From a virus (Duplodnaviria; Caudoviricetes), in the IMG/VR virus record IMGVR_UViG_3300033066_001295, positions 96,001 through 160,000 of that record: DNA of 64,000 nt; one strand, written 5' to 3'. The translations under genes were made by a program, and so were the position numbers. The notes beneath the pieces are model-generated. The model was not told the origin of the DNA, did not search any database, and worked only from the letters and a program-made list of their open reading frames with translations. Of the stretch, positions 2,076 through 63,234 are shown piece by piece (position 1 is the first letter of the stretch; every line of letters starts with the position of its first letter).

Positions 2076-2450
2076 TCAAATATCGAGTAAATCTACAACA
2101 CTGCCAGCCAGTTCATGGGAGCAATCATCAAGAAATTGAACTTTCCCGTCGTTCACCCATGTATGGCAAATAATCCAGTCGATGTCCAGAGTCTCGCCTG
2201 CCATTGCCTTGGCATACTCTTCATTTGTCATGTCTCTCACTTTCTTTGTGAGGATGCTCGGTCGAAGTGTTGGCTTCTCTATATCACCATTCCACGTCCA
2301 GCTATTTGTGCCTTCACGTTGACCTTTGAGAATAACAGGAAGTATTCGTTGAGGGATTGGACCGGGCATCTTCAATTCCACAAAGGAGGCCTCTTCTGGA
2401 GGGCACTCAACCCACTCACCATTTTCACGCCTGACTGGTTTAGCTTTCAT
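2076..2450 (-). CDS. DUF6527-like protein
   Basis: WTWNGDIEKPTLRPSIL...CHTWVNDGKVQFLDDCSHELAG. Confidence 0.65.
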   Translation of the reverse strand: MKAKPVRRENGEWVECPPEEASFVELKMPGPIPQRILPVILKGQREGTNSWTWNGDIEKPTLRPSILTKKVRDMTNEEYAKAMAGETLDIDWIICHTWVNDGKVQFLDDCSHELAGSVVDLLDI

Positions 2451-2680
2451 GACTAAAGTTCATATAGAATATCATTCCAGTAGGTCCATCCAATGGTTGA
2501 ACCTTCACCAGTTCTGCTGCTATTAGTTCCGGGTAAACTTCCCTGATAATGCAGGAAAAGTAGCCTCTACGAAGTTTAGTTGCAACCACTTCAGGGCATG
2601 TGGCAATAGCTATCGAGGCTATTAGTGAACCAAAGAATCTTCGAGGCTATTAGTGAACCAAAGAATCTTCGTCTTGTCAT
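2440..2680 (-). pseudogene. Tat-signal + gp23-like segment protein, frameshifted by a 28-bp tandem duplication
   Basis: removing one 28-bp copy restores a 70-aa ORF: MTRRRFFGSLIASIAIATCPEVVATKLRRGYFSCIIREVYPELIAAELVKVQPLDGPTGMIFYMNFSHES. Confidence 0.75.
2613..2668. repeat. 28-bp perfect tandem duplication
   Basis: tcgaggctattagtgaaccaaagaatct x2. Confidence 0.95.
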
Positions 2681-3258
2681 TCTATCAGATGTTGAACAGT
2701 TCCATGGAGTGGTCCAAAAAAACAGGGAACCCAATCGGACAGGCTGTTTGACATGACAGGTCTTCCGCCGCTGTCACGATCTACAATAGCTGTGACGTGA
2801 GGTACTTTATTGGTGCTATCATCAGCACCCTCGACTTTGAAAGCTGCCACAAGGCCATTACTGGAACGTGCTGACACATTGAGGCTTCTCCTCTGACCGG
2901 CAGTGCCTATGTGGTCTCCAAAGGTAAGTGTGCAGTGGTGGCAGACAAGTTCCCCCTTCATTTGAGGGAAGCACTTTGAGGCATATGCCTTCAAAGCCTG
3001 CTGTGAGGCATCATCGAGAACAATGGCTGTCCATTTCTTGCCCTCAAATAACCTTGAAACATCACACCCTCTCTGCTGAAATAGACTTAAAGTTATACCA
3101 CACCAAAGCTACAGGCCAGAAAAGAGTGTTGACGATGGCGTTTAGAGAAACAAAAAACGCTGGCATACGTGTCTTCTGGGCGATGCTCACAATCTCCTTT
3201 GAATGACAGATAAGCCAGATAAGGCCTGTTATAAAGTATGCTTGAGCAAGTACTAATG

Positions 3259-3600
3259 TCATATTTTCAGAGTTTTGAGTGATTTTTCTATAGCGTCAGC
3301 GTAAGGCTTGAACATGACACCACTGTAGAAATGACCGGGGTATCCGATCTTGGCCTTCTTGGTTTCCACGAGTGTGATAAACTCAACAGCCTGACTCTCG
3401 CTGAAATGGTTGAAGTACACCTTGGTCGTGCTGTCGATGTACATCTTGTAGTTCTTGTCAGTTGGAATGATCTCAGAACCGGCCTTGATTTTCTCAAGAG
3501 CTATGGAAGGCTTTAGTCCTCCGCAATGTGAGCAGGTGTCATCGTCACGCCAGTGAGCACCTTCACATCTCCACCAAAAAGTATCTTTTTCTTCAGGCAT
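3259..3600 (-). CDS. hypothetical protein (CSHCG motif)
   Basis: 113-aa ORF with TCSHCGGL...DKNYKMY motifs. Confidence 0.6.
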   Translation of the reverse strand: MPEEKDTFWWRCEGAHWRDDDTCSHCGGLKPSIALEKIKAGSEIIPTDKNYKMYIDSTTKVYFNHFSESQAVEFITLVETKKAKIGYPGHFYSGVMFKPYADAIEKSLKTLKI

Positions 3601-3671
3601 CGGAGCTAAATTACATTGATTTCAATCTGTGCCAAGACAAAGTTATAAAGTCAGCGAAAATAACTACCGAC

Positions 3672-4118
3672 ATGACAACATTTTCACCAGATGTGCTAAA
3701 ATCAGCAGCGTTTTACGCTGGCTTTGTCTTTCCAAAAAACTGTTTCATCCCACTAGACAATGCATACGCCTGTGTCGATGACAGCGAGGCCATGAAGTTT
3801 GCTGCTGAGTGTGCGGCCCAGTCTCAGTTTATTCTCAAGCTATGGACCGAAGAGAGGAAGGACTGTGACAAGTTCTCCCGTCTCACTCAAGCTGTAGCCA
3901 TGATGGCTCATGCTCTTCAGTCAAACAGCAAGGCAGGTCTCGCTGTTGGTGTGCTTGGCTATACCCGCGATGATGGTGAACGTCATTCAGTCAATGCCAT
4001 CTTTGGCAAAGTGAGGGGGAAGACGGAGGTAACCATCCGTGTGTTTGAACCTCAGACCGGAGAAGAGCTTTTCCTCTCCGACAAGGAAAAAGAAAGCTGC
4101 CTTCACCTACTAATCTGA
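3672..4118 (+). CDS. transglutaminase/papain-like cysteine protease-fold protein
   Basis: DCDKFS...HSVN...FEPQTG motif pattern; start assumed at MTTFS. Confidence 0.55.
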   Translation: MTTFSPDVLKSAAFYAGFVFPKNCFIPLDNAYACVDDSEAMKFAAECAAQSQFILKLWTEERKDCDKFSRLTQAVAMMAHALQSNSKAGLAVGVLGYTRDDGERHSVNAIFGKVRGKTEVTIRVFEPQTGEELFLSDKEKESCLHLLI

Positions 4119-4225
4119 ATAGGGCACTGAAGGTAATGTTATAGTGACCTTCTGAGGTGAAGGTTCAGCCTTCTTTGACTGACAAGAAGGCAACGACAGA
4201 AGCAGAGCAATAACAGCGAGGTATT

Positions 4226-5945: not shown

Positions 5946-5946
5946 G

Positions 5947-6554: not shown

Positions 6555-7067
6555 TCAGTAACAAAACCACCCTCCACACTTTTTGCACCTCACGCCACTG
6601 TAGCAAGTCGGGTCGGCCTCATGATCACAGTTGGGGTCGGCGTCATAAAGCTTAGTGTGAGCAAACTGGTTGAATGACTTAGACTTGACCACAGGATCAT
6701 GTGTCAGTTCATTGGCCACTTTGGCTGCGTCGCTGTACTTCTCGTCACACTCATCACAAAGCCACACAAACTGAGTGATACCTAGCAAAGGCCCGACTGG
6801 TAACTTGCTAGTAAATGGGCCTGTAGTAATAACAGGTTTAGGCCCACTGCTACTACTGCTAAACACTCCCGGTAAATCTGCACCTATGTCGTGCCCATCG
6901 GCATCGACACACTTGCCCATCCAGTCCCAAAACTCATCCTTGTCACGAGAGGGGCAGTCACCAACATCAACTACTGGGGTGGCAGCTTTCTGAGCTTCCT
7001 TGGAAGCTTTCAGTTCATTAGCTACAGAGATAGCAGAACTTAGGGGATATGATGAGGAGCAACCCAT
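6555..7067 (-). CDS. Cys-rich hypothetical protein
   Basis: C-terminal LYDADPNCDH...GVRCKKCGGWFCY; PSRDKDEFWDWMG motif shared with ORF 61150-61488. Confidence 0.6.
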   Translation of the reverse strand: MGCSSSYPLSSAISVANELKASKEAQKAATPVVDVGDCPSRDKDEFWDWMGKCVDADGHDIGADLPGVFSSSSSGPKPVITTGPFTSKLPVGPLLGITQFVWLCDECDEKYSDAAKVANELTHDPVVKSKSFNQFAHTKLYDADPNCDHEADPTCYSGVRCKKCGGWFCY

Positions 7068-7068
7068 A

Positions 7069-7458
7069 TCAGGAATCAGTTTTGATTGAGTAGTAAGGCA
7101 TCCCACCGGGTAGCAAACCCCACATGGGTCGAGGCATCAGGCACTCAACTTGACCTGAAGCTGCCCCAAGAACAAAAAGCTCATCCATGTTCTTGTGTTC
7201 ACCCCAATGTGTACCGTCACGTGTGTAACAGGCATTGAGGAAACTCCATCCGCCGCCTTTGTTGGCAAAGAATTTATCAGGCAGGCAACCGAGCATTTCT
7301 TTGATCTCCTGCTTGTGAGATGCAAGCCTCTCCGGGTGGAAGCCGAATCGGCCAAGGATACCATCCACAATGACAGCTTTCGATTTGTCCTCATCCGCCT
7401 TGAACAAGGAATCGAGGAACACTCTGGTTACGTTTTCAATTGTTAGCTCGGTAGGCAT
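7069..7458 (-). CDS. conserved phage hypothetical protein
   Basis: GGGWSFLNAC...WGEH...LPGGMPY motifs. Confidence 0.65.
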   Translation of the reverse strand: MPTELTIENVTRVFLDSLFKADEDKSKAVIVDGILGRFGFHPERLASHKQEIKEMLGCLPDKFFANKGGGWSFLNACYTRDGTHWGEHKNMDELFVLGAASGQVECLMPRPMWGLLPGGMPYYSIKTDS

Positions 7459-7868: not shown

Positions 7869-7946
7869 GAATAGCTGATTTGATTGTGTAGGTGATAAGG
7901 TTTACAGCAATGACAACAGCCACGATTATAGCGACTTGTTTTAGTG

Positions 7947-33572: not shown

Positions 33573-33600
33573 TACCTCCCATTTGTTGTGTGTTCCTGTT

Positions 33601-33637
33601 AACCTCCGCCTCTTCAAAGGGGCGGAGGTTTTCTTTT
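33601..33637 (+). terminator. intrinsic terminator
   Basis: aacctccgcc-tcttcaaagg-ggcggaggtt hairpin followed by ttctttt. Confidence 0.8.
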
Positions 33638-34525: not shown

Positions 34526-34556
34526 AAAAAATGGGGTGGCATTTCTGCCACCCCAT
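34526..34556 (-). terminator. intrinsic terminator of the Ro60 gene
   Basis: ATGGGGTGGCA-GAAA-TGCCACCCCAT followed by a T-run. Confidence 0.85.
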
Positions 34557-34571
34557 CGGTTAAGGTTGATG

Positions 34572-36077
34572 TTAGAGTTCGACTGCCTCGATCTCCTTGA
34601 GAAGAGCCTTGCTGTCCACCTCTGAGTTCTTCAGGATGCTGAAGATGTTAGGAGAGAAACCAGCAAGTGGCTTGAACCAAGCCTCTGGAAGAGGGTGGGC
34701 TTCATACCCAGCGAGGTTCCAGAGGTACACCAAGGTGCCACACTTGAACCTGCTCTGGTACTCCCTTACTGCATGAACTGGGGCGGTGTAGCCTTCCCAG
34801 TGCATGTTATCAGACAGGATGATGATTCTGCTGTAGGCCTTCTTCAAGATCGGGAAGATCGTGTTGAAGTTGGTGCCACCCATGTCGCTCTTCAACAGAC
34901 GGGCAATCGTGAAGATTGAGTCATCTGGGTTGAGAGAAACATACTCAGCGGCACTACCGAAGCGAACCACGTCACAGTTGAAAGCCTTCACCATGATGGC
35001 AGCGAACACGTCCGCAGCCTCCAAAGCAGAAAGAGACACCTGCTGCTCACCCTTGCTTCCGTCCTTGCCCTTGGCAAAGGCTACGCCGGTTGTCATTGAA
35101 CCAGAGTGGTCCACAACAACGAGGGTTTCGCCTTCGAGTTCAGGGATGTTCTTGCAAGAGATTTCCATGGCCTTGTTCAAAGCCGTCACAATCGTCCTGC
35201 CGTTCTTGTCCGTGGCATCCACGGCCTTTGCGGCGAGCAGGAAGTGATATGGGAACAGCTTCGAGTTGGCAATAGCCTTCTCGTTGGTTAGGAACTCAGC
35301 AAGGGTATCAGCCATGTCAGGAGCTTCCTTGAGGATGTTACGCACGTTGCGAACAGCCGCAAAGTAACCAAGCTTCTTCTCCTTGAGAAGTTCGCGCCAG
35401 TTGTTGGCAAGAGCTTCCACCTTGTCTTCTTCGGACAAGTTTTCAGCCTTGGCAGCCTGACCGGTCTGGGTCCTCTTGACTTCCCACGTTTCAGCAGGAG
35501 CAAGCGTACCCTTCACAAGGGCTGACAATGGAGCACTAGCTGGTGGGTGAAGCAGGTTCACTGCATCAATCAGCTTGAAGTCACCGTTACCCTTGTACTT
35601 GCTGATCTGGTAGTTGTCGAAGCGGGCCAGACGTTCACCGAGACCCTTGCGCATTGCGTTTGTGATGCGCTTCTTACCGAAACGACCAAGAACACAGGAG
35701 GTGATCTCCGTCACGTCATCAGGGCGGTATGCCACCTTGCTGAAGAAGCTCTTTGCCCATGGCTTACCCTGACAAAGCTGTGACACTTCTGCTGCCACGA
35801 GATGACTCGTGGAACGCATGTCAAACTTCATACGGGTGTAAATTGCCGCCTTGGCTGCAAACTCAGGCTTCACCTTGTTCACCAATTCAAGCAGTCTCTT
35901 AGCTGCTTCGTCACCACTCCGGTAAGCCTGATTCTGGAGCTTTGAAGCTGCCAGTAGCTGTACCAGTTCCAGTTCAGGAGAGGACTTGAAGGCCTCGCCA
36001 CCTGCACGGTTTACTGTCTTCTGTGCTTCGAGGGTTGAACCTGAAGCCACTTTTCTGCCTGTTGCGTACTTGCTCAT
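34572..36077 (-). CDS. rsr: Ro60/Rsr TROVE-domain RNA-binding protein with vWA domain
   Basis: VNRAGGEAF, RFDNYQISKY, ETWEV, LGYFAAVRNVRN, MIDAS motif VDHSGSM, GGTNF, ILSDN. Confidence 0.92.
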   Translation of the reverse strand: MSKYATGRKVASGSTLEAQKTVNRAGGEAFKSSPELELVQLLAASKLQNQAYRSGDEAAKRLLELVNKVKPEFAAKAAIYTRMKFDMRSTSHLVAAEVSQLCQGKPWAKSFFSKVAYRPDDVTEITSCVLGRFGKKRITNAMRKGLGERLARFDNYQISKYKGNGDFKLIDAVNLLHPPASAPLSALVKGTLAPAETWEVKRTQTGQAAKAENLSEEDKVEALANNWRELLKEKKLGYFAAVRNVRNILKEAPDMADTLAEFLTNEKAIANSKLFPYHFLLAAKAVDATDKNGRTIVTALNKAMEISCKNIPELEGETLVVVDHSGSMTTGVAFAKGKDGSKGEQQVSLSALEAADVFAAIMVKAFNCDVVRFGSAAEYVSLNPDDSIFTIARLLKSDMGGTNFNTIFPILKKAYSRIIILSDNMHWEGYTAPVHAVREYQSRFKCGTLVYLWNLAGYEAHPLPEAWFKPLAGFSPNIFSILKNSEVDSKALLKEIEAVEL

Positions 36078-47018: not shown

Positions 47019-47830
47019 AGTGGTTTGGCAGATACGTCACAAGGATAATGTACTCCACCACAACTGCTGATGTAGGCTGAAACCCACTCAAAGTCCATGG
47101 TGTTAAGCTTGCCCAGAACACCTTTGGTGTACCTATCCCAGCAAAATATAGCTAGGTTGCTCAGGTCCCTTGGAGGGTATATGACACTTGAGTCTGAGAT
47201 GATGCCAAGACAATGTTCAAGCCAAGGACACTTCCTCTTCTTGTGTCCGTACTTGTCCCACATGTAGTCAGAGTTGCGAATGCACTTTTCAAGCTCAGTA
47301 ATATCAAGACTTTCTTTTCGGCACAAAAAGAATCTTGTGCTCACCCACCAGTGATCAAAGGACGTATCAACAACTGGAGTTGGTGAGCAGTCGGACGGGT
47401 ATGACACATACTTGTAGCCATCAAGCAAGCCAATCAGTCCATCAACAACACCTTTGTCCCTAGCAAAGGCGGCACAATCAGAATCAAAATGAGCCACGTA
47501 TTCACCTCTGGCAAGGGAGAGAGCGTTCAAGTAGTTGATGTCGTTGAACATGGTGAAAGGGTCAGCACCCATGAAGTGGCGGCTGTGTTTCCTTATGACA
47601 AGACAGTCAACAAGACGATCAAGCTCAGTCCTGATGCTTGGTGGAATCTCCTGATGCACATCGACATGGAGGATGGTCTCGGTCTCGAAACCTGCAAAGA
47701 ACTTCTGTTTGTTTACAACACCTTCAATGAGGAAATCAAAGTTCCTACACCCATCGTTCATCCCAGTGAACCTAGTCACCTCAGATTCCACTCCGGGGCG
47801 TGTGTCAGTATTGATGACAATGCTTATCAT
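47015..47830 (-). CDS. GT-A fold glycosyltransferase (GT2-like)
   Basis: MISIVI N-terminus; LARGEYVAHFDSD (DxD motif). Confidence 0.65.
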   Translation of the reverse strand: MISIVINTDTRPGVESEVTRFTGMNDGCRNFDFLIEGVVNKQKFFAGFETETILHVDVHQEIPPSIRTELDRLVDCLVIRKHSRHFMGADPFTMFNDINYLNALSLARGEYVAHFDSDCAAFARDKGVVDGLIGLLDGYKYVSYPSDCSPTPVVDTSFDHWWVSTRFFLCRKESLDITELEKCIRNSDYMWDKYGHKKRKCPWLEHCLGIISDSSVIYPPRDLSNLAIFCWDRYTKGVLGKLNTMDFEWVSAYISSCGGVHYPCDVSAKPL

Positions 47831-48558
47831 AGACCCAGTGTACTCAACACAGTGGAAAGAAGCCCGTCAGTTTTGCTGCCACCATTAAAGTGGAAAGCTG
47901 CTGGGAATGAGCCTGTAACCTTGTTCTGGACATATTCTCCTGATGTGAAATCAAACTCGTCCATTTTGCACCCACACATGGTTTGAGCCATGTGACACTC
48001 ATGATCCAGAATCATCTTAACTGGCTGGTCAAGATAGGCCAGCGTTATGTACCCTTGGTCATTAGGGTGGACAACCCTGCCCTCTGAGTCAACATGGTCA
48101 TCACAGTTGAAGCCTTCCGGCACGTTCACTTTATACATGTGCTCAAGCATGGTGACAAAGGCGTCACGATGACCGACAATAAAGCCTGAGTTAAGGTACC
48201 TGAATTCGGTGCCACATTCAGGAAACTTGTCTGCCAGATGGCCCAAAGGGAAACAGTTCTTCTCAGCATTAAGCACAAGGTCTGCACCAGTTGCTAAAAA
48301 AGTGTCATAGATATAGTCTGGGCTTTTGGCGAAGACTAGGTCCCATGAATCGGCCACAATCAACTTTTCAGGAGCATTGCCATCTTTCAGCCACTCCAAC
48401 AATCGCTGTGGCTTTGTCATAAGCCCGCCCCACCTTTGCTGCCAACCAAGTATGGTTGCCTCATGCCCAAACCTCTTCAGGCTGGCAAAGAACTGGTCAA
48501 AGCAGTAATAAGGTTCCCTTGGTCTTCTGTTTGTAATAGTGACAACAGACACACTCAT
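47827..48558 (-). CDS. PLOD-type glycosyltransferase domain protein
   Basis: VADSWDL, NAEKNCFP, YLNSGFIVG, NDQ, HFNGGSK. Confidence 0.8.
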   Translation of the reverse strand: MSVSVVTITNRRPREPYYCFDQFFASLKRFGHEATILGWQQRWGGLMTKPQRLLEWLKDGNAPEKLIVADSWDLVFAKSPDYIYDTFLATGADLVLNAEKNCFPLGHLADKFPECGTEFRYLNSGFIVGHRDAFVTMLEHMYKVNVPEGFNCDDHVDSEGRVVHPNDQGYITLAYLDQPVKMILDHECHMAQTMCGCKMDEFDFTSGEYVQNKVTGSFPAAFHFNGGSKTDGLLSTVLSTLGL

Positions 48559-52646: not shown

Positions 52647-53063
52647 TCATGTGATGTCTTTAATGAAAGGGAAGGAGAACTTGTCAAACACAACTGGCAT
52701 GTGCAGTTTGTCCTCCATTTTAGGAAGCACCTCAAGTTCTTCTGGTGTTATAGCCCTCCAGCACTGCTGCCCATGGTCCCACACTCTTTTCCAAAAATAA
52801 GAAGTTCTGCCAATGTAGCCATCTGGGAGGTTGTCCGTGTCGAATTTGGAATCCCACTCATACACGTCTTTGCTAGGGCTGAAAACATGCCATTGCCTCT
52901 CACCACCCATGCCTCCCCACTTGCCGTCACAGATTGAGTAAGGGTTAGCCATGTCAAGCTCATCTGATTCCTCCTTTGAGAGGAACTTGAACTTGAAGGT
53001 TAGGTCCGTAGGACCGTCCATAGGCTGGACGGTTACAAGGTCATGTGCGCTTAGAGTGCTCAT
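52647..53063 (-). CDS. protein with gp23-like segments
   Basis: N-terminal LSAHDLVTVQPMDGPT; C-terminal FDKFSFPFIK. Confidence 0.6.
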   Translation of the reverse strand: MSTLSAHDLVTVQPMDGPTDLTFKFKFLSKEESDELDMANPYSICDGKWGGMGGERQWHVFSPSKDVYEWDSKFDTDNLPDGYIGRTSYFWKRVWDHGQQCWRAITPEELEVLPKMEDKLHMPVVFDKFSFPFIKDIT

Positions 53064-53696
53064 CTTCCTGCTTCTTGATGTCTTTCTTGGTGGCAATACG
53101 CTCTTTGCTCCAAAACACCTTTTTGAAGTCACGAAGATGTTTCCACCATTGAGGGGGTTTGGTCAACAGTCCTTTCTTTACAGTGGCCATATGATCTTGA
53201 GACGTGGAAATTCATCTGCTGAAGGGGATGGCTTGTAATCAGCCTTCATTTGGTCTTCAGACGGGAAGTAGATCGAACAGGTAGTTGGGTCATATCCGGC
53301 GGCAGGATCTTGATGGCCACCGTGCGCCCCAGTGTCTTCTGCACACCTGATGGAACCTTATAGGTCACATGAGTGCTCATTCTTAGCTTCTTAGCAATGT
53401 CAGCCCAAGAAACCTTTTGTTCACGAAGAGAGATGATCTGATTGATATAGCGTGATGCTGGTTTTTTCATATCAGAAAACTATGACAGCATGGCTTCAAC
53501 CTGTCAAACATTTTGTTATTCCACCAAGCGGTAACTCTCCAAACTGCGAAGATTGATAAAACAGAGTCTCCAAAGAATTTGGAATACCTCATCATCTGGG
53601 GCTTCTTTGGTGATAGCAGTGGCAGCCTGAAGAACAGCCGTCTTGGCCTTCTCAAGCTCTACCTTGGCTTGGGGGGAGTTTGACATGTGCATAGAA

Positions 53697-54264: not shown

Positions 54265-54339
54265 TGGTACGCCCGGTTGGTTCTGCCCCAACTACCAAGG
54301 AATTATGAGTTCCCTGCTCTACTATTGAGCTACAAGCGC
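54265..54339 (-). tRNA. tRNA-Ile2/Met(CAT)
   Basis: GCGCTTG/CGGGCGT-A-CCA; loop CTCATAA. Confidence 0.8.
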
Positions 54340-54343
54340 AAAT

Positions 54344-54468
54344 GCAAAAGGAGAAAATCGGAGAGAGTAATTACCGTGCTGCCGTTACACTAAAGGCTTT
54401 CACCTTTGGGAGTCGAACCCATCCGGTCGATAATCAGTCGAAGTAACTCTGTTCCTCGCTGCCTATGC
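54344..54468 (-). ncRNA. Y RNA (YrlA-like) 1
   Basis: 5' GCAGCGAGGAACAGAGTTACTTC pairs with the 3' end; internal permuted tRNA module (T arm GGGTTCGACTCCC, GAAA-capped stem, D arm GTGTAACGGCAGCAC). Confidence 0.75.
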
Positions 54469-54545
54469 TGGTCAGGTTAATGGGATTCGCACCCATGGTC
54501 TCTTCGTCCCGAACGAAGCGTGATACTAGGCTTCACTATAACCTG
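54469..54545 (-). tRNA. tRNA-Pro(CGG)
   Basis: CAGGTTA/TAACCTG-A-CCA; CTTCG-TTCGGGA-CGAAG. Confidence 0.85.
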
Positions 54546-54552
54546 TTAAATA

Positions 54553-54706
54553 TGTCAGAGAAAATTGAAGAGCGGTATTTTTCGGTGCTCTACTATTAAG
54601 CTATAGTGGAATTGAAATCTCGATCATGAGACTTCAATTCCACCAAGGGGAATTGCACACCCTACACCCGTCTTGAATGAAGTAACGCTTTTTCTCGCTG
54701 CTGACA
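54553..54706 (-). ncRNA. Y RNA (YrlA-like) 2
   Basis: 5' TGTCAGCAGCGAGAAAAAGCGTTACTTC / 3' CGCTCTTCAATTTTCTCTGACA; T-arm-like, long hairpin, D arm GCTTAATAGTAGAGC. Confidence 0.75.
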
Positions 54707-54707
54707 C

Positions 54708-54784
54708 TGGCGTTCCTGAGAGGAATTGCACCCCCATCTTTCGCGTTCGATGCGCGAAGCTCTAGTCTGTTAAGCTACAGGAAC
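54708..54784 (-). tRNA. tRNA-Arg(TCG)
   Basis: GTTCCTG/CAGGAAC-G-CCA; TCGCG-CATCGAA-CGCGA (A33). Confidence 0.75.
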
Positions 54785-54785
54785 A

Positions 54786-55241
54786 TTAACTTTCACCGAC
54801 GTATGTCACGCCACAGGCGTTACACACATATTTTGAAGAATCGCCATTCGGTGGATGACGAAAAACATTGCAGCCACAGTCACACCGGAATGACTGTCCG
54901 CCAGAAAGCCTCACCATTCTGTCCACGTCAGGATCAGCCCAGTTGGCTACCTTCTCAGGCACAGAACGCTGGGTTCTCAGTTCAAACAAGCCTTTGAGGT
55001 CAGACTCCTGTTCCATGATCAATCGAGCATAAAAGGCACGATGGTTATTGCAGAGTTTGAAGTCAGGATCAGTTGTGCTGAGTCCTACCTCCCATCTAAC
55101 AAGCTCATAGATCATGCTAATACCAAGCTTGGTCTTGCCACCCTTGGCTTTCACCCAGTCACGGGCAAAACCAACAAGAAGCTCATAGACCTTTGGGTTC
55201 TCTTTGTGGAACTTCTGGAACTCTTTTTCAAGCTTTGACAT
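54786..55241 (-). CDS. conserved phage hypothetical protein
   Basis: FHKENPKVY...FKLCNNHRAFYARL; C-terminal FRCDCGCNVF...CNACG. Confidence 0.65.
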   Translation of the reverse strand: MSKLEKEFQKFHKENPKVYELLVGFARDWVKAKGGKTKLGISMIYELVRWEVGLSTTDPDFKLCNNHRAFYARLIMEQESDLKGLFELRTQRSVPEKVANWADPDVDRMVRLSGGQSFRCDCGCNVFRHPPNGDSSKYVCNACGVTYVGES

Positions 55242-55312
55242 TAGTTGACTATAACTAATACAAAACTCCTGTCAAATTGTTTTGAAAAGTCCGTTGAGTG
55301 TATGTATTTCTT

Positions 55313-55864
55313 ATGGAAGACTTAACGGGAAACATCTTCGGACTACTTACTGTTATAGGTCCAGCGAGCAAAGCTAACAAACAACGTGGCAGACGTTGGG
55401 AATGCCGCTGCTTGTGTGGTAAGCTAACCTCTGTACAAGGCTACAACCTAAAAAGAGGAAACACAAAATCGTGTGGATGTTTAGTCGGTGAAAAAATGAG
55501 GGGAAAATGTAACCCAAGATTCAAAGGTTATGAGGAAATCAGTGGGTCAAAATTATATGAGTACAAGAAAAATGCAAAACTTAGGGGGTTAAATTTTGAA
55601 GTCACTATTCAAGACCTTTGGGAGCAATTTCTAGCACAAAATCGAAAGTGTGCTCTAACTGGAGTAGAACTCACATTTCAAAAAACCATTTTAGACCGAG
55701 CATCAACAGCCTCTTTAGACAGAGTTGACAGCACACTAGGGTACACTAAAGGCAATATTCAATGGCTTCACAAAGATGTTAATTATATGAAATCAGACCT
55801 TCCACAGGAAGTATTCATACAAATCTGTAAACAAGTAGCATCTCAGCACGAAGGAAAACCATGA
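55313..55864 (+). CDS. HNH homing endonuclease inserted in the tRNA region
   Basis: DLTGNIFGLLTV, WECRCLCG, KSCGC, KCALTG, SLDRVDSTLGY..NIQWLHKDVNYMK; AT-rich and on the opposite strand. Confidence 0.85.
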   Translation: MEDLTGNIFGLLTVIGPASKANKQRGRRWECRCLCGKLTSVQGYNLKRGNTKSCGCLVGEKMRGKCNPRFKGYEEISGSKLYEYKKNAKLRGLNFEVTIQDLWEQFLAQNRKCALTGVELTFQKTILDRASTASLDRVDSTLGYTKGNIQWLHKDVNYMKSDLPQEVFIQICKQVASQHEGKP

Positions 55865-55960
55865 GGGGAGGGAGCCACTTTCACATCCTGTAGCTCCAAC
55901 CCATGTGCAGGCCGACAACGGCAATTCGCTGCTCCCCCCACTCATGGTTCAAAAAAAGTG

Positions 55961-56162
55961 TTTCCCATGCCAATGATTTTACGGCGGGTCTGGTTACCCG
56001 CTTTCACCTTCACGTCATTACCTCTTTCAGGCGGATTGTGACTGGCCTAGTCACTCTCTGACGGAGACAACCTCTCATAGGATTTGATAGGTATATGGGG
56101 GTGAAGCGCATCAATCAAACGAAGGGTACATTGCTGTCCCTAATTCGTCACTGACTGGGAAA
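55961..56162 (-). ncRNA. unassigned structured RNA
   Basis: no ORF; TTTCCCA/TGGGAAA closing stem and internal hairpins (GTGACTAGGCCAGTCAC, GCGGGT..ACCCGC). Confidence 0.5.
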
Positions 56163-56163
56163 T

Positions 56164-56286
56164 TGGTCGAACAGGAGGATTTTCACCACCGTCTCTGAGG
56201 AGCTATTAGAGCCAACCTTTTTGCACTCATTGCTTGTTGGTCATCTGTCTAGCCGTCTCCATCTCGCGTATGGGCACGCTGTTCGA
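56164..56286 (-). ncRNA. tRNA-like RNA with enlarged core and CCA end
   Basis: TCGAACAG/CTGTTCGA-CCA; T-arm-like GGTGG-TGAAAAT-CCTCC; no normal anticodon arm. Confidence 0.55.
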
Positions 56287-57770
56287 TAAAAGGAGTGTAT
56301 ATCACTCCGAGAAAATTGTCAACCACTACTTTGTGGTAGGCTCTGGCTGAGGTTTTGCCTTCAACATATCAGTCAAGAAGCTGAGAGTCTTGTCATGGGC
56401 TTGATCAGCCCCGTAGGAGCGGTTTATCTCAGCCCTGATGTCACCTTTAACTGTCTCTATGTCAGCCTTCATGTTAGAGATAGACGAGGCATAGACAGCA
56501 CTCTCATCAACGAGGTGCTTCACCCTTTCGATGGTAGCAGACTCAGTAGCTTTGGCCACTGCCCAAGATGATATACCATCCTTGAACTGAGTGAAGACAG
56601 CCCATATACCCAGAAAAAGCATTATCTGGTTGTTTGAGATGTTGATCCTCGGCTCCTCAGCAGGCATACCAAATAGGTAGGTGTGTGATGGTATTCCCAA
56701 GTGGAATTGCACCACTTCGAGCACCTTCGGAGAGTGCCATGCCTCTATTACATCATGGGAACTGGTGCTCACGACTGGAGTTGCACCAGCACTGCCACGC
56801 TTCTGAGACGTGTGCCTCCTGCTATTGGGCTACGTGAGCTTAATGATACAAAGCCGCAGATGCTCTGTGACGAGAGTATGGTTCAGGCTCGTCATCACCA
56901 TCATCAAGAAATTCAATCTTTGTCACTGTATGCGAGGTCTCATCAGCTTTCTCAAAGGGCTTGCCCATGTAATAGGCATATGCTTCATCCCGAGAGGCAT
57001 TGATGGTGGTGTAAAGGTAGTCACCGTCATCAAATGTCACCTTCAAAGCGTGTTTTTCAGGTTTGACCTTACCATAACGCAAGTCATCAGGCAACTCAGG
57101 AAGACCTCTTTGCTGCCTAATTTTAACCATTTCATCATGGTCCATACCTAGAGGTGACTCGTTCATCGAGCTAATGAAACTGTTCATGTCAATATCTACC
57201 CTGTTGAAGCAGTAAACTTGATTTTTGACTTCGGTATGTCGTGAGGTGTCTTGTATGAAGCCGACCTGAAACGGTGTGTATAGACGAAGAAGCCGTTGGC
57301 ATCCTTGCCCAAGCTCACCTCTTTCATGATCTCCTTCAGATCATCGGGCTTGGGGACGTTCTCCATTTCAGATTCAAACAGGTTGAGAAAGGTCATGTGT
57401 TGTCAAATACCTATAAGTAGGCTTATACCTGTCAAATAACAAGCTTTGTTGAGTTACCTGACTGAACGCCCTCATTTCAGCAGCCAAAACTTCAGCATCT
57501 TTTTGGCTAAATCCGCCACCATCAAGTGCTCTTAGCTCAAGGATGTAATGACTGTCACGTAAAAAAGTTGAGTACTTGTAAGCTGGATGGACAATGTGAC
57601 AATTAACCCACACAACCACCTTATCAGAATCGGCCAGTCGAACAATATCAACAGGCCTATCTTTGAAAAAGCTTAGTAGTGGGAAAACCTCACCCACCAC
57701 ATTGAACTTGATGCCATTGAACTCGTACATCGGGTAATTACATCAGGTACACCTTGAATGTCAAATATTT

Positions 57771-57845
57771 TGGACGCCAGTAAGGGGATCGCACCCTTCT
57801 AGTTCGTTTTGCAGACGACTCCGCACTCTAGCCCGGTCACTGGCG
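57771..57845 (-). tRNA. tRNA-Cys(GCA)
   Basis: CGCCAGT/ACTGGCG-T-CCA; loop CTGCAAA. Confidence 0.8.
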
Positions 57846-57853
57846 ATTATAAA

Positions 57854-57928
57854 TGGAGCCACCAATGGGATTCGCGCCCATCTCTTCCGAATACCAATCG
57901 GATACATCGCTGTCTATGCTTTGGCGGC
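57854..57928 (-). tRNA. tRNA-Thr(GGT)
   Basis: GCCGCCA/TGGTGGC-T-CCA; TCCGA-TTGGTAT-TCGGA. Confidence 0.85.
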
Positions 57929-58360
57929 AAAAGTTATATTTCTCGGCTCGATGACACCGTCATAGAGCACTGTGCCAACACTACTGAGGGAGGCTTGGTA
58001 GTAGCTTGAGGGTATTGATAGGTACCCATCAACAACCCACTCGGGGTGATTTTCGGTAAGTTTGGCAAACATTTCTTCAACCCTGTCTTCCAACTCTTTG
58101 GAAGTGGTACTGCCATACCCAACAGGTTCACTCAATGATGGCCTGTCAACCCGGAGGAGAGTTGTATCAACTAGGCAGCTAAGAACTACAGGTTCCCCAC
58201 CACCATCTGCTGCTTCAGCATAGTAGTAGGCAAGCTCAAACTTGTCTGATAAGCAAGGATTCTTCAGCCCATGAATTTTGATCGAAGAAACCCACTCGCT
58301 ATTTGTCCCGTGGTACAAGGTTACTGAGCTTTCAAACAGGCTGACAAAACTAGCTGACAT
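57914..58360 (-). CDS. ADP-ribosyltransferase-fold protein (HYE/Tpt1-like)
   Basis: TLYHGT..SIKIHGL..CLSD..LAYYYAE..PVVL...YDGVIEP. Confidence 0.55.
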   Translation of the reverse strand: MSASFVSLFESSVTLYHGTNSEWVSSIKIHGLKNPCLSDKFELAYYYAEAADGGGEPVVLSCLVDTTLLRVDRPSLSEPVGYGSTTSKELEDRVEEMFAKLTENHPEWVVDGYLSIPSSYYQASLSSVGTVLYDGVIEPRNITFAAKA

Positions 58361-58761
58361 ACTGATATGTAGCTATCAAAAAAATTTCAGTGTTCATGTG
58401 GGGAGAGGTCTCTTTCCTACCTTCAAAGTCAGCTTTCGCTTCTCATATCATCACATGAACTCCTGTTTGAGCAGACACCAAGTTAGTCCTTAGACCTTCC
58501 AGTGATGCTCGCCGGATAGCCCCCGGCTCTCAAATTGTTATGGTCTTTTATCACAATGGATCATATAGACCGGTCTCGTTGGAAGAAATCTTTCTTCTGG
58601 GTAGAAGCTGTTACAGACAAAAATGCCATCTGTCCTGCCCATGCTCTTCATTTCAAGCTCTTCCTGTGACCTCACCTCAATCACGATCTCATTCAGTGAG
58701 TAGCCTAGAGCCTTGGCTGTGCCTGTCTTACCAGACCCCATTGAGCCATAAATCAGAGTGA

Positions 58762-59154
58762 TCATTTCTTAGTGCCACTGGCAACGTAGGTTTTCAGTTG
58801 CTCCTTCAGTGCTTCCACAGCCAGATTGTAAATCTCAGGAACATCACGTTTTACAACCTCTGAATTGGCAATCTCAGGGAGAACGTACATCAGAGCTACG
58901 GTCTTACTGGAGGGAAGAACAGAGGATAGTGTGCCCAGCAAAAGGATAGCAGGCAGTGAAAATAGAAGCGACCACTTTGAGATAGAAGAAAATACTGGTT
59001 TGAGTTCCTTATCCACCCCTTTGTCATTGGATAAGAACAAAAACACAACTCCGAGAATGGCTAGGAGCACAGAGGCAAAGACTACCCCTCCACAGGTACT
59101 ACGTACCTCGTCGGCCATCTGCCACAGATATACATTGAATGGTGTTATTGACAT
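58762..59154 (-). CDS. two-TM membrane protein
   Basis: YLWQMAD..TM..TM..LPSSKTVALMYVLP. Confidence 0.65.
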   Translation of the reverse strand: MSITPFNVYLWQMADEVRSTCGGVVFASVLLAILGVVFLFLSNDKGVDKELKPVFSSISKWSLLFSLPAILLLGTLSSVLPSSKTVALMYVLPEIANSEVVKRDVPEIYNLAVEALKEQLKTYVASGTKK

Positions 59155-59195
59155 ACAGAGACTATATCAAGAGTTGACTTGAGGTCAAATGAAAA

Positions 59196-59270
59196 TGGAA
59201 GCCCATGTTGGTAACGCTCCAATCTTACTCCGGGTCAAAGCCGGATGCATTGCTTCTATGCTAATGGGCT
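59196..59270 (-). tRNA. tRNA-Gln(TTG)
   Basis: AGCCCAT/ATGGGCT-T-CCA; TCCGG-CTTTGAC-CCGGA. Confidence 0.85.
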
Positions 59271-59417
59271 AAAAAGGTAAATAGCCGGTTACTATTCCGG
59301 CGTCCCTGAACCCGCTTGCTACAGGCTGGACAGTACTCCTTTTGGGCAAGCAGCCCCCGCAACTTCCCTGCGGACGGTATGGTGAGAAACCCTCTTTGCA
59401 AAAGGAGAGCGATAACA

Positions 59418-59467
59418 CCCATGACACACCTTCGTGTGTTTCGTCCTTTTTGGACTCATCAGATGGG
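59418..59467 (-). ncRNA. type I hammerhead ribozyme
   Basis: CCCAT-CTGATGA-GTCC(AAAAA)GGAC-GAAA-CACAC(GAAG)GTGTG-TC^ATGGG: complete core with all three stems paired. Confidence 0.9.
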
Positions 59468-59469
59468 AG

Positions 59470-59610
59470 TCAAAGAAGTGGAATCACACATTTGCACAGC
59501 ACATGTTGCACCACTCACGCTGGGTAGGACAGTCTTCACATCCAGCAGGCTCACCAAGGGGGACTGACTCTCCCATAGGTGGCACCTCGCGTCTTATTCC
59601 GCCACTTTGA
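59470..59610 (-). ncRNA. unassigned multi-arm tRNA-like RNA
   Basis: TCAAAG/CTTTGA closing stem, Leu-type D-arm GTGGCGGAATAAGACGC, three further hairpins. Confidence 0.5.
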
Positions 59611-59612
59611 TT

Positions 59613-59687
59613 TGGCAGCCATGGTAGGATTTGCACCCACTTAAAACACCTTCAGAGGGTGTCGCATATCTATTCTGCCACATGGCT
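59613..59687 (-). tRNA. tRNA-Gln(CTG)
   Basis: AGCCATG/CATGGCT-G-CCA; ACACC-CTCTGAA-GGTGT. Confidence 0.85.
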
Positions 59688-59706
59688 ATAACACTTTAAC
59701 TCACAC

Positions 59707-60414
59707 TCATGCTGCTGCCCCCATTGCTTCGGCCATGGCGCGGGTTTCTTCGAGGTCAGGAACAACCACAGCCTTGGGCTTGGCACCCCAAGGCAAACCG
59801 AACCGCTTGGCGCAGATGGGGCCGTAGCCAACATCAGTGGAACGCTCATCATCCAAGCCACGGCTGCAAAAGCAGCAACAACCGGTGCGGTGACCATACT
59901 CAGCAGCAACCTTGGCAGGATCAGCGGCGAAGTTCTTCAGGAGGTCAACCACAGTGGAGTCATTGTCACGGCCAGCGAAGAACTCGCCTGACTCAGTGAC
60001 ACGGCCATAATAGGCACCACCGAAAGTAGGGCTGGAAACCATCAAGTTGCCGACATACTTGGACCGCTCACCGGCAAAGGAAATCTTCACCTTGTTGCCG
60101 GAGGCGGCGGAGAGGATGACGGCTGGACGCTTGAGGGCTGAGGCAGCCTTGATGAAGAGGTTCTTGATGCCACTCAAGTCGATCTGGGCGGCTGGAGTTG
60201 GAGCCACCTTGGGCGTTGCCAGCTTGTGAAACCAGAACAAACGGGCTGGAGTGAGGTTGTTTGGGTATGCCTCGACCAGAGACCGGGCGAAGGAGGGGTC
60301 ATTGAACTCCCCATTGGCGATTTTGGCAACCAGAGCTTCCTTTGCTTCTGCATCGGAATTGAACGGGCTGGTGATGACTTCGTTGTTCTTCGGATTGGTA
60401 AGTGTCGTGCTCAT
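59707..60414 (-). CDS. DUF6011-like zinc-binding domain protein
   Basis: YGHRTGCCCFCSRGLDDERSTDVGYGPICAKRFG; leaderless start after the promoter at 60422-60449. Confidence 0.75.
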   Translation of the reverse strand: MSTTLTNPKNNEVITSPFNSDAEAKEALVAKIANGEFNDPSFARSLVEAYPNNLTPARLFWFHKLATPKVAPTPAAQIDLSGIKNLFIKAASALKRPAVILSAASGNKVKISFAGERSKYVGNLMVSSPTFGGAYYGRVTESGEFFAGRDNDSTVVDLLKNFAADPAKVAAEYGHRTGCCCFCSRGLDDERSTDVGYGPICAKRFGLPWGAKPKAVVVPDLEETRAMAEAMGAAA

Positions 60415-60421
60415 GGTGGAC

Positions 60422-60449
60422 ACTATATCGAAAGTCGGTCACTCGTCAA
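60422..60449 (-). promoter_or_regulatory. conserved phage promoter
   Basis: TTGACGAGTGACCGACTTTCGATATAGT, 7 nt before ATG at 60414. Confidence 0.8.
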
Positions 60450-60738
60450 CCAGAAAATGAGTTTTTCAGTTAATTTTTTCTTCACCCCGGTACGCCATGA
60501 GCCATGAAGAGCAAGTTGGCGAGCACATCCGATTGCCACTGATTGAGCTTTTTGGGTGTTTCACATCGTCTTCGGTCAATCGAGGGTCTTCCCACTCCTT
60601 TTCGAGCATTCTCACCCCACACTTCGGACATCTACGCCAGACGTGTATTGAAGGTGGAAAGTCATCTTCGTATTTGGAAAACATTGGTACCAGTGAGTGG
60701 ACCCGCCCCACAGTGCAAAGGCTTATGAAACCCCGCCC

Positions 60739-61149
60739 CTACTTCAGGACACTGGCATTGATTCTTTGCATTCTGGCTGGCGCAGCAGCGAGAACTCTCG
60801 GGCTGATGTGCTTTTCACAGGACTGCCTCAAAGCACCTTTTTGCTCAAGAGAGAGCAAACTCACAGATGGCCCAAGGTGTTTTAGCTGAGGAAAGCTAAT
60901 GTCTTCTGAAAGGACATAACCAGCCTCCCTGAGAACCTCTTCAGCAGGCTTGTAAGGTGTCCCCATTCCAGCAATTCGCCTGATGTCACGGATGACCTCC
61001 CAGTCGATCTCTGTTTGGAGCAAAAGGGCAAGCCACTCAGAGAAGTCGGTGATGATGATCTTCTTGGGAACAGGTGCTACAGCCGGAAGAGGCACGACAG
61101 CAGCTACTGCCACGCCCATGAGTCTCTTGAAAAAATCGCGCCTGTCCAT
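60739..61149 (-). CDS. Tat-signal protein with gp23-like segment
   Basis: MDRRDFFKRL signal; LALLLQTEIDWEVIRDIR. Confidence 0.6.
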   Translation of the reverse strand: MDRRDFFKRLMGVAVAAVVPLPAVAPVPKKIIITDFSEWLALLLQTEIDWEVIRDIRRIAGMGTPYKPAEEVLREAGYVLSEDISFPQLKHLGPSVSLLSLEQKGALRQSCEKHISPRVLAAAPARMQRINASVLK

Positions 61150-61491
61150 TCAAGAATATGTCACAAGAGGTGGACACTTCAAGATTTTACTTTCTGGAAT
61201 TATAACCAGACTAGGGTAGGCAAACTTGTTGAAGTACTCTGGAAGGGCTGCTGCGTACATCTGCCCAAACAGTGAGTCTATAGAGTCCTTCGTCCCGTCC
61301 CCACCTAGATGGGTACAGTGTGTCTTGCCACAAATGGAGCAGGTGTCATATGCAGCACTGGAAGCAAAGTCTGACAACCAGTTACTAACAGCAGAAACAA
61401 CTGCTATGGCTGAAGGAACATCGAGAGTGGACATCTGACTGCCCATCCATCCCCAGAACTCGTCACTTTCTCTTGAAGGAACATCCATAAT

Positions 61492-61568
61492 TGGTCAGGC
61501 TAGAGGGATTCGCACCCTCGGTCTCTTGCACCCCATGCAAGCGTGATACTAAGCTTCACCATAGCCTG
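61492..61568 (-). tRNA. tRNA-Pro(GGG)
   Basis: CAGGCTA/TAGCCTG-A-CCA; CTTGC-ATGGGGT-GCAAG. Confidence 0.85.
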
Positions 61569-61574
61569 TTAAAT

Positions 61575-61704
61575 GATCAAAGGAAACTGAAGAGGGCAAA
61601 ATAGCTTTCGCTACTTCCCCATTAATCAACCATACCAATGTTATGGCTGATGGTGGGGAAGGCTGCCTTTCGGCAACGAAGTAGCCTGTTTCTCGCTGTT
61701 GATC
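61575..61704 (-). ncRNA. Y RNA-like 3 (Ro-binding-type stem with non-tRNA effector module)
   Basis: 5' GATCAACAGCGAGAAACAGGCTACTTC / 3' CCCTCTTCAGTTTCCTTTGATC; two GAAA hairpins flanking a long stem. Confidence 0.65.
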
Positions 61705-61778
61705 TGGTGGAACCGGACGGTAACCCTCCGTCGTTTGAGACATGCCATGCCCCCGTTCTAGTTTTGAACTACGATCCC
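61705..61778 (-). tRNA. tRNA-Ala(GGC)
   Basis: GGGATCG/CGGTTCC-A-CCA with G3:U70; loop ATGGCAT. Confidence 0.85.
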
Positions 61779-62163
61779 ATAAAGTACCCGTTCTGGTGCG
61801 CTTCTTTGAGAGGCGTAACGGGTTTTTGGAGGACGCACTCGGCGTTTAGCCGATTCTCATGAACATGCGCCCATAAATGCAGGCCGGTTTTACCCGGCTG
61901 GTACTTCAAGTAAGAGGGTAGATGCCTCATCCTCTATTTTCGGGCAGCCCCGTCCTTAATGGAGCGTTGTACCTACCCCTCCCCACCGCTTGGTTTAGCT
62001 ACGCCATTCGGTGCCTGTTTACTGTGCGTGCCTAGCACGCTGTCTGCAAAATTTTAGCTTCATCACCCCTCACGTTCTCTTACTCTTGGAGTGACATACC
62101 ACGTTGACAAGCCCCGAATAACGATCCGAACTTATCTAGGCTGGGAATATCTTCCTGAAGCTA

Positions 62164-62256
62164 TGGCGGATAATCGAGGACTTGCACCCCAAGCTCACTT
62201 TCGTGGCTCAATCCGATTTCGAGTCGGCACCGGCTCGCTTGTCCGGTTGATCATCC
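62164..62256 (-). tRNA. tRNA-Ser(CGA)
   Basis: GGATGAT/ATTATCC-G-CCA; loop CTCGAAA; long variable arm. Confidence 0.8.
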
Positions 62257-62468
62257 AAAACTGAATCTGGGTCTTTCCAAGTAATCTCAAGGGTCCCATC
62301 TTCCAAAAACTTGCACTTGCAGTCAACGCTCAGCTTTCGCTGAGCGACTATTGGCATTGACACAATCTCAAGATCAAAGCTTGGAAGGTCTTCAGGTAGG
62401 ACCCCTTCAGGCACTACTGAGACTACAGCCGAAGCGGCAGCAGACTTGAAAAGTGTTCGTCTATCCAT
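62208..62468 (-). CDS. Tat-signal protein with gp23-like segment
   Basis: MDRRTLFKSAAASA signal; LPSFDLEIVSMPIVAQRKL; 3' end overlaps tRNA-Ser. Confidence 0.5.
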   Translation of the reverse strand: MDRRTLFKSAAASAVVSVVPEGVLPEDLPSFDLEIVSMPIVAQRKLSVDCKCKFLEDGTLEITWKDPDSVLDDQPDKRAGADSKSD

Positions 62469-62675
62469 GACGCCTTGCCTCCTCTCTTGTTACCTCTAGG
62501 AGAGGGCCATATCTAACGTGAACAGCCGTGTCAAATTCAGGCTCGTCAGAAATGCATGAAATAGTGAGAGCATCACTGCCATCACCACATGCTGCTACTT
62601 CAGAGCATTCAAATTTACCATTCCAGAATGATATGCTGAGAAACCCCCTATAGGGTTTCATAAATCTGTAATACC

Positions 62676-63116
62676 CTACTGGCATGATTCACAAGGACCA
62701 TCAACTGAACAGGAAGGTTGACCGAGTTTGGTGTCACCAAAGTCGAGGTCATCTTTCTGTGCAACTTCATCTGCTGCCTGCCATATTCTGGCTTTCACCT
62801 CTGTACGAGGCTCTATTTTGAACTCCCCATCAACACGAAGCGTGCGACGATCCTCTGAAATGAAGTTTGGGTCTGACAAGCTCTGCTGAATAGCCTCACA
62901 AAGAATCTCAACAACCTCATCATCAATGCTAAGACCATGACGCTGAAACACGGTATCAACAACGTCATTATTCCAACGAACTTTGATGGTACGGCCATCC
63001 ACAGCAATACCCCTCCTTAGCACGATGTCATCAGGCCCAAGTGGTGCATCTGGGAAGGTGATTGTGTGACCGGGAAATCGCTCCTGAACCTTTACCATAA
63101 AGTCTTGATCAGTCAT
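62676..63116 (-). CDS. protein with gp23-like segment
   Basis: AVDGRTIKVRWNNDVVDTVFQRHGLSIDDEVVEILCEAIQQSL. Confidence 0.6.
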   Translation of the reverse strand: MTDQDFMVKVQERFPGHTITFPDAPLGPDDIVLRRGIAVDGRTIKVRWNNDVVDTVFQRHGLSIDDEVVEILCEAIQQSLSDPNFISEDRRTLRVDGEFKIEPRTEVKARIWQAADEVAQKDDLDFGDTKLGQPSCSVDGPCESCQ

Positions 63117-63230: not shown

Positions 63231-63234
63231 AAAA

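Follow-up and report, generated by a model that had tools for sequence, protein, structure and literature searches.

Capsid proteins are now known to be among the main triggers of bacterial immunity (PMC9712102, PMC13581612), and a stand-alone peptide from the Gol region of the T4 capsid protein gp23 is itself biologically active, being reported to activate Lit rather than to titrate it (PMC9712102). In Bodo saltans virus, open reading frames (ORFs) with ankyrin repeats carry fragments of essential viral genes, and the authors proposed that these act as decoys for host defenses (PMC5871332). In the T4 prohead, the N-terminal region of mature gp23 is believed to point toward the scaffold core, and after expansion its N-fist and N-arm clamp neighboring subunits (PMC9546572, PMC9958956). 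Here we consider a dispersed set of small ORFs that resemble pieces of the major capsid protein (MCP) of the phage that encodes them. They lie in a 64,000-nucleotide stretch of DNA, the window that was analyzed, which comprises bases 96001 to 160000 of the 207,816-bp IMG/VR virus record IMGVR_UViG_3300033066_001295 (estimated completeness, 94%).

In our reading, these ORFs may be domesticated fragments of the MCP gene, that is, accessory genes that began as partial copies, were kept by selection and now work as molecular mimics. We give this reading as a whole a probability of about 0.5; its first element, an origin from the capsid gene by partial copying, is well supported by the comparisons below. 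The phage is T4 related, has a genome of ~208 kb and encodes a single full-length Gp23-type MCP of 471 residues, located outside the window at contig positions 31729-33144 on the minus strand. The closest GenBank relatives of this MCP are just 26 to 35% identical (e.g., those of Bacillus phages HSE3 and SP-15, Listeria phage LIS04 and T4-like cyanophages), and more than 100 MCPs of its clade are present in metagenomes. An alignment of 64 metagenomic MCPs from this clade served as the lineage profile, A2, which was run against the full six-frame set of 3791 ORFs from the genome and from which ungapped position matrices were derived and scanned genome-wide.

The original prediction had listed six ORFs with MCP-like segments, and all six are present on the minus strand where it placed them: ORF1 (2440-2680), P0001 (52647-53063), P0005 (60739-61149), P0002 (61150-61488), P0003 (62208-62468) and P0004 (62676-63116). 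In the A2 search, the ranks directly below the MCP were taken by ORF1 (expectation value, E, 2e-11), P0001 in its longer form (52647-53132; E 2.4e-4), a frame at 63723-64202 that was missing from the earlier list (E 0.031) and P0005 (E 0.033). P0003 (E 2.9) ranked 14th and P0004 (E 5) 16th of the 3791 ORFs, and P0002 was absent from the matches. With the N-arm matrix, ORF1 reached 69.7 and P0001 42.5 versus -2.2 for the top noise site; with the spine-helix matrix, P0005 reached 29.7 versus -1.3 for the next site among 147,195 positions; and the HKLSF matrix gave 63723-64202 a score of 20.0 versus 8.7. P0002, P0003 and P0004 were among the top five of their own matrix scans, yet within noise. 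Comparison of each ORF with Gp23-type profiles and with the phage's own MCP, which had been suggested as a check, gave significant local alignments for ORF1, P0001 and P0005. Thus, the claim of six MCP-like segments stands for 2440-2680, 52647-53132 and 60739-61149 and is suggestive for 62208-62468, but it is not supported for 61150-61488 and 62676-63116 taken alone. Counting 63723-64202, four ORFs are supported by their profile and matrix scores, P0003 is suggestive, and P0002 and P0004 are individually not separable from chance, although both are located in the same 3.5-kb cluster as supported ORFs.

Further comparisons bear on the same point. A related phage, G001, has an MCP that is 66% identical; on its 65-kb contig, the best matches of ORF1, P0001 and 63723-64202 were to the MCP gene, while P0005 matched its own G001 homologue first and the MCP gene second. 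As a control, the MCP was the only one of 195 ORFs of at least 150 residues to have several dispersed small-ORF look-alikes in the genome, and all 11 weak matches of P0001 to GenBank phages fell on capsid genes. Against the Pfam Gp23 model (PF07068; cutoff, 24.4 bits), ORF1 passed with 31.4 bits (31.9 in a second search), P0001 stayed below at 19.5 bits and the other ORFs gave no match. These matches span positions 11 to 43 (ORF1) and 14 to 61 (P0001) of the 376 in the model, and ~28 (P0005) and ~60 (63723-64202) positions of the lineage profile are covered by the other two ORFs. Judged by these alignments, the ORFs are fragments and not capsid proteins, each with some 30 to 75 MCP-like residues, from which formation of an HK97 fold would be impossible. 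Short MCP-like proteins returned by a word-based search proved to be truncated or frameshifted capsid genes and hence not mini-genes. Such a broken capsid gene is seen in a related phage (locus L006, 9980-11448; JGI contig Ga0642623_08840), where breaks of the reading frame in the insertion domain divide it into five pieces or more, possibly through frameshift errors or decay; its N-terminal piece had surfaced in that search as a short capsid-like protein.

By their alignments, the fragments fall into at least three separate lineages, namely, the P0001 family, the P0005 family and the orphan ORF1, with 63723-64202 as a further piece. The P0001 family matches the end of the MCP propeptide, the N-fist and the N-arm; ORF1 matches the N-arm; and the P0005 family matches the spine helix and probably also a P-domain strand. 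P0003 is probably one more MCP piece. The fragments retain consensus residues of the MCP clade, and each lineage keeps those that are most conserved over the whole clade.

ORF1 carries a copy of the region that contains Gol. Its residues 33 to 65, the segment that gave the 31.4-bit Gp23 match, are encoded at 2452-2550 (minus strand), correspond to MCP 85-117 (T4 gp23 ~98-130) and to lineage profile positions 86-118, and are 60.6% identical to the phage's own MCP over 33 residues. The earlier alignment of this segment by eye with the Gol region was correct: A2, whose alignment to T4 gp23 begins at residue 96, places it on gp23 96-133. In the assembly, a tandem duplication of 28 bp with two identical copies (2613-2640 and 2641-2668) shifts the frame and breaks the gene; what is left is a leader peptide of 29 residues (2591-2680) and, without leader, a frame at 2440-2646 that might start from a GTG at 2589. 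After collapse of the duplication, ORF1 is a mini-gene of 70 residues in which a leader with a twin arginine (RR) and a hydrophobic stretch precedes a copy of the N-arm and the first E-loop strand of the MCP; its ATG then overlaps the stop codon of the upstream gene, and its own stop codon overlaps the ATG of the downstream gene. Such start/stop overlaps are the usual packing of real phage genes. Two loci returned as ORF1 relatives, L020 and L021, were dismissed as off-frame chance matches in high-GC bacterial contigs.

Conceivably, the fragments are neutral debris, i.e., pieces of the capsid gene that recombination or homing endonucleases have scattered in a plastic tRNA island, with ORFs that are incidental. 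The 54- to 64-kb part of the window is indeed a tRNA island, with the capsid-fragment cluster among the tRNA genes. Within this cluster, the pieces do not keep the order that they have in the MCP, the MCP gene has an HNH-like ORF on its downstream side, and endonuclease genes interrupt the capsid genes of relatives. To this may be added the frameshift in ORF1 and the failure to find relatives of ORF1 in IMG/VR and JGI metagenomes, of P0003 in JGI metagenomes and of P0004 in IMG/VR. Substitution patterns point the other way. Identity to the MCP gene at codon positions 1/2/3 is 76/76/21% for ORF1, 69/76/31% for P0001 and 48/70/30% for P0005, so that third positions are at the level expected at random and positions 1 and 2 mostly at 70 to 76%. 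Third positions have thus been randomized while residues were retained, and we therefore regard these as selected genes rather than debris. In each candidate ORF, its own frame has the best codon usage score of the six, and the overlap of the ORF1 start and stop with both neighbors also speaks against incidental frames. No MCP among the 113 sampled came nearer to a fragment than that of the phage itself, and recent capture from a diverged capsid gene was rejected for lack of a nearer donor among them.

A further argument against debris comes from the two families that are conserved across phages. Synonymous divergence (dS) is saturated in both the P0001 and the P0005 families, and protein identity is still 35 to 61%. 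When the genome was searched in reverse with the two family profiles, the MCP was the best other match. Purifying selection can be assigned to at least these two families, and the original prediction's own grounds for rejection, no significant local alignment to gp23 profiles or segments evolving neutrally and absent from relatives, do not apply to them. For the orphan ORF1, selection is suggested by the codon pattern only, a support that P0003 and P0004 do not share. All in all, we consider debris a very unlikely account of the set, and for the P0001 and P0005 families it is already refuted.

P0001 (52647-53063, minus strand) has 138 residues from its ATG, with a possible GTG start at 53132, has no leader and belongs to a family of five. 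Its four homologues, 45 to 82% identical, were found in other metagenomic phage contigs, where they adjoin QueD and ribonucleotide reductase genes or an NAD-dependent DNA ligase gene. Besides a core of ~60 residues, P0001 contains an N-arm-like segment (52968-53054; MCP 93-121; 48% identity over 29 residues) and a C-terminal third that resembles MCP 34-88, i.e., the propeptide end and the FDKF motif. The motif itself, FDKFSFP (52659-52688; MCP 78-87), is invariant across the family and forms the extreme C terminus of its members. In P0009, the most distant member, the FDKF and VQPM-type motifs stand together at the C terminus in the order of the MCP, whereas in P0001 the VQPM part is N-terminal; the family is therefore circularly permuted, as would be expected from tandem duplication followed by truncation. 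Profile-profile comparison aligned the family to MCP 34-108 with a probability of 94% (E 9e-8). An AlphaFold2 model of P0001 from the five-sequence alignment was unusable (predicted local distance difference test score, pLDDT, 42), and a complex prediction with two N-arm-less MCP copies scored 0.03, which carries no weight either way. As a separate observation, a 243-residue protein with a PLOD-type glycosyltransferase domain (window 47827-48558, minus strand; E 1e-25) is kept beside a P0001 homologue in another phage contig.

The extent of the copied region in the P0001 family raises the possibility that these proteins belong to the head, using the N-terminal MCP region as a handle for entry into the prohead, for docking on the lattice or for tuning assembly. 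MCP 34-108 spans the propeptide end, N-fist and N-arm, and its T4 counterpart is the very region thought to face the scaffold core and later to clamp subunits. T4 prohead assembly also begins at the inner membrane (PMC9958956), where an anchored leader could place such proteins, and in G001 a P0005-like gene lies ~430 bp downstream of the MCP gene. This account nevertheless has to explain why the genes stand far from the head module, both here and in three relatives, among accessory and nucleotide metabolism genes. Their patchy distribution and the one broken copy would be unusual for assembly components, and the topology of the RR leader would put the passenger outside the cytoplasm. We regard a role in or on the head as unlikely, though a serious rival to mimicry.

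The second family is built around a different element of the capsid protein. P0005 (60739-61149, minus strand) is a protein of 136 residues with an RR leader, a short strand, a long helix that copies the MCP spine helix and a GYVL strand. The helical segment (60961-61041) corresponds to MCP 281-307 and is 55.6% identical over 27 residues. One IMG/VR search with P0005 returned no relatives; the family came from an exhaustive HMMER search, which yielded five cluster representatives (50% clustering), and the seventh member is the 83-residue ORF downstream of the G001 MCP gene. One member, on a contig that recurs in several samples, belongs to a compact operon of small genes close to ThyX. The only invariant triplet of the family, EID, lies within the MCP-like helix. 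In profile-profile comparison, the family aligned to MCP 279-307 with a probability of 88% (E 3e-6), and a weaker collinear alignment (E 0.027, low probability) placed the GYVL strand on the P-domain strand that holds T4 A455. In T4, mutations that bypass the folding factor gp31 map to V306/V307 and A455, in the spine helix and P-domain strand (PMC9546572); according to the alignment, the EVI residues of P0005 would fall on V306/V307. The AlphaFold2 core of P0005 (residues 30 to 83, pLDDT ~80) consists of a strand, a long helix, a short helix and a strand, preceded by an N-terminal helix. Searches with this model gave no match in Foldseek at E <= 0.001, the best VIA Z was 3.7, and the look-alikes in the ESM Atlas were all <0.9.

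Three of the ORFs, P0003, P0005 and the repaired ORF1, start with MDRR, continue with F/L-F-K and then run into an Ala/Val-rich stretch, so that each has a basic N terminus followed by an Ala/Gly/Val-rich segment. The original prediction took these for RRxFF/RRxLF signals of the twin-arginine translocation (Tat) type. The leaders are present, but their assignment to Tat depends on one marginal match, that of P0005 to TIGR01409 (17.3 bits; cutoff, 16.7). P0003 scored 13.8 bits against the Pfam Tat model (PF10518; cutoff, 22.7), and ORF1 matched neither TIGR01409 nor PF10518. Moreover, TIGR01409 matches just one of the seven P0005 family members, which speaks against the Tat assignment. The RR pair is kept in P0005, P0130, the G001 copy, P0003 and ORF1, but P0128 has RA and P0129 has RK in its place, which likewise counts against Tat; the gene calls of two members are truncated. 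In a relaxed genome-wide scan, only four or five ORFs carried such a leader, three of them the capsid-like ones. We conclude that the leader is a real shared module that looks like an export or anchor signal and might be Tat dependent. Derivation of the RR leaders from the MCP N-arm by divergence was considered and rejected: the MCP lineage has no RR there, the profile comparison aligns the helix only, and a similar leader of the KR type is found on a 216-residue ORF without capsid likeness (16873-17523, minus strand). Other leader-like sequences were seen in passing. A 236-residue protein (20273-20983, minus strand) has a lipoprotein-like signal ending in Cys, and a 194-residue ORF near the G001 capsid gene (locus L008, 372-956, minus strand) has a cleavable-looking signal peptide and a C-terminal end, RLTF, typical of outer membrane beta-barrel proteins.

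With leaders of this composition, the proteins might serve an unrelated purpose, for instance, exclusion of superinfecting phages or control of lysis from the membrane or the periplasm, the capsid ancestry being vestigial and the motifs being kept for folding. The TIGR01409 match of P0005, narrow as it is, would suit an envelope location, as would the KR leader on a non-capsid ORF and the mosaic nature of P0002, which has a motif in common with another ORF (see below). If folding were the only constraint, it would be hard to see why the kept residues are exactly those positions that are conserved clade-wide in the MCP. Conservation of the MCP-like block equals or exceeds that of the remaining sequence in both families, and the invariant triplet of the P0005 family lies inside it. 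P0001 and 63723-64202 have no leader at all, and the fact that three of the four or five leader-bearing ORFs in the genome are capsid-like suggests a linked function. We view a vestigial capsid ancestry as improbable, yet an unrelated envelope function is, like a role in the head, a serious rival.

If the fragments are indeed selected mimics of the MCP, their history may be pictured as follows. Partial copies of the MCP gene would arise and be retained as small accessory genes, and each protein would display one capsid element on its own to a partner that otherwise recognizes it within the full-length MCP. In view of their accessory location, fast evolution and patchy distribution, and because one copy has been knocked out, a role in conflict would be favored over housekeeping assembly: the proteins may block a host factor that reads capsids or disturb the assembly of a competing phage. 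The three members with an export- or anchor-like leader raise the possibility that part of the set acts at the membrane. A more specific version is that the mini-proteins are natural antagonists of capsid-sensing immunity: as isolated copies of elements read by host sensors, namely, the Gol-type N-arm and the helix of the P domain, and in part tethered to the membrane, they would occupy a sensor, or a cofactor such as EF-Tu, without setting it off. The free Gol peptide activates Lit (PMC9712102), and therefore a simple decoy is not the obvious expectation; for the same reason, such a decoy must be an antagonist and not a simple copy. We consider this specific version doubtful.

Several observations weigh against the interpretation of the ORFs as selected mimics. 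Of the seven ORFs, three lack significance when taken individually. ORF1 has no single open frame in the assembly, and it shares with P0003 and P0004 the lack of detected relatives described above. The G001 gene downstream of the MCP gene is placed as an assembly gene might be. Proteins that are truly exported, if export is real, could not meet capsids, EF-Tu or cytoplasmic sensors. Lastly, the T4 late promoter TATAAATA occurs in only 5 copies in 208 kb, none of them upstream of the mini-genes or the MCP gene; this motif is not used in the phage.

The remaining ORFs of the cluster add little individually. P0003 (62208-62468, minus strand; 86 residues) begins with an RR leader that is a paralogue of the P0005 leader, followed by a segment (62334-62396) that resembles the second E-loop strand of the MCP (~239-259), with 12 of 15 residues identical to some clade MCPs; the likeness is suggestive only. 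The 159-codon frame at 63723-64202 (minus strand; 63723-64000 within the window) runs past the window end, has no leader and resembles MCP 316-376 in its residues 69 to 122, including the HKLSF and ETLP motifs. P0004 (62676-63116, minus strand; 146 residues) has a good coding signal, and its likeness to MCP 254-295 (62883-63008) is not significant alone. In P0002 (61150-61488, minus strand; 112 residues), the FNKFAYP motif (61189-61236) ranked third of 185,105 positions, which is not above noise. A PSR..DEFW.WMG motif in the P0002 N terminus (61438-61494, minus strand) recurs in a Cys-rich ORF of 193 codons (6555-7136, minus strand; 62% over 21 residues, E 4e-4), and a weaker version occurs in a third ORF (contig 70065-70469, plus strand); P0002 is therefore a mosaic or part of a small paralogue family.

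Some features of the surroundings may be recorded here. Nearly all genes of the window are on the minus strand. In the tRNA island (54268-63614, minus strand), Rfam finds 12 tRNA genes versus 7 by ARAGORN, those called by Rfam only being 54268-54339, 57857-57928, 61708-61778, 63238-63309 and 63544-63614. A sequence just upstream of P0004 (~63120-63200) resembles the 3' half of a long-arm tRNA and is called by neither program. Between two tRNA genes inside the cluster lies an Rfam abiF RNA motif (RF03085; 61786-61822, minus strand; 37.9 bits versus a gathering threshold of 37), and a sequence like the hammerhead type I ribozyme at 59417-59468 (minus strand) scores 31.1 bits, below the gathering threshold of 34 (E 1.9e-4 in a 12-kb search). 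Elsewhere in the window, a 501-residue homologue of Ro60 is encoded (34572-36077, minus strand), with TROVE (Ro60) and Ro60 vWA domains (E 1.3e-18). Around the MCP gene, the HNH-like ORF directly downstream encodes a Cys-rich protein of 343 residues (contig 30614-31657, minus strand), and upstream there is a protease-plus-scaffold fusion of ~680 residues (contig 33194-35245, minus strand), whose homologue in a relative has a Peptidase_S77 domain. A match of a further profile, A3, at contig 34735-34878 was spurious, being an off-frame ORF within this protease-scaffold gene.

In summary, capsids trigger bacterial immunity, and selected copies of capsid elements therefore suggest a counterstrategy of self-mimicry or interference with the capsid assembly of a rival. 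If the antagonist version were true, the mini-proteins would belong to a widespread, undescribed class of "own-protein mimic" counterdefense genes in giant T4-like phages. The set also illustrates a route of phage gene birth, in which an essential structural gene is partially duplicated and one interface element is retained, with circular permutation in one family, and the peptides would offer ready-made probes for binders of the capsid N-arm and P-domain helix.

In a limited literature search, we found no published description of capsid-fragment mini-genes in phages, and the described systems resemble the present one in different respects. ORF1 and the P0001 N terminus are homologous to the Gp23-type stretch that contains Gol (T4 ~98-130), but Gol is part of the capsid protein and not a separate gene, and a separate copy could benefit the phage only as an antagonist. 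T4 gp24 is likewise a duplicate of the major capsid gene that was kept for a new role, and it matches the same Pfam family; it is, however, a full-length HK97-fold vertex protein in the shell, whereas the ORFs described here have 70 to 160 residues and match ~30 to 75 residues of the 471-residue MCP each. The internal proteins of T4 are likewise small accessory proteins with a short N-terminal handle that could take them to the scaffold core (PMC9958956), but the T4 handle is a leader of ~10 residues that is cleaved by the prohead protease and does not copy the capsid protein. The nearest published analogue that we found is the set of ankyrin-repeat ORFs of Bodo saltans virus: there, too, multiple accessory genes each combine a fragment of one of the virus's own essential genes with another module, a description that fits the four significant ORFs and up to three further ones here. 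In that eukaryotic giant virus, the fragments come from catalytic domains and the partners are ankyrin repeats, whereas in this phage the MCP is the sole source and the partner module is either the export-like leader (three ORFs) or the ~60-residue core of P0001; in both systems, the decoy role is a proposal.

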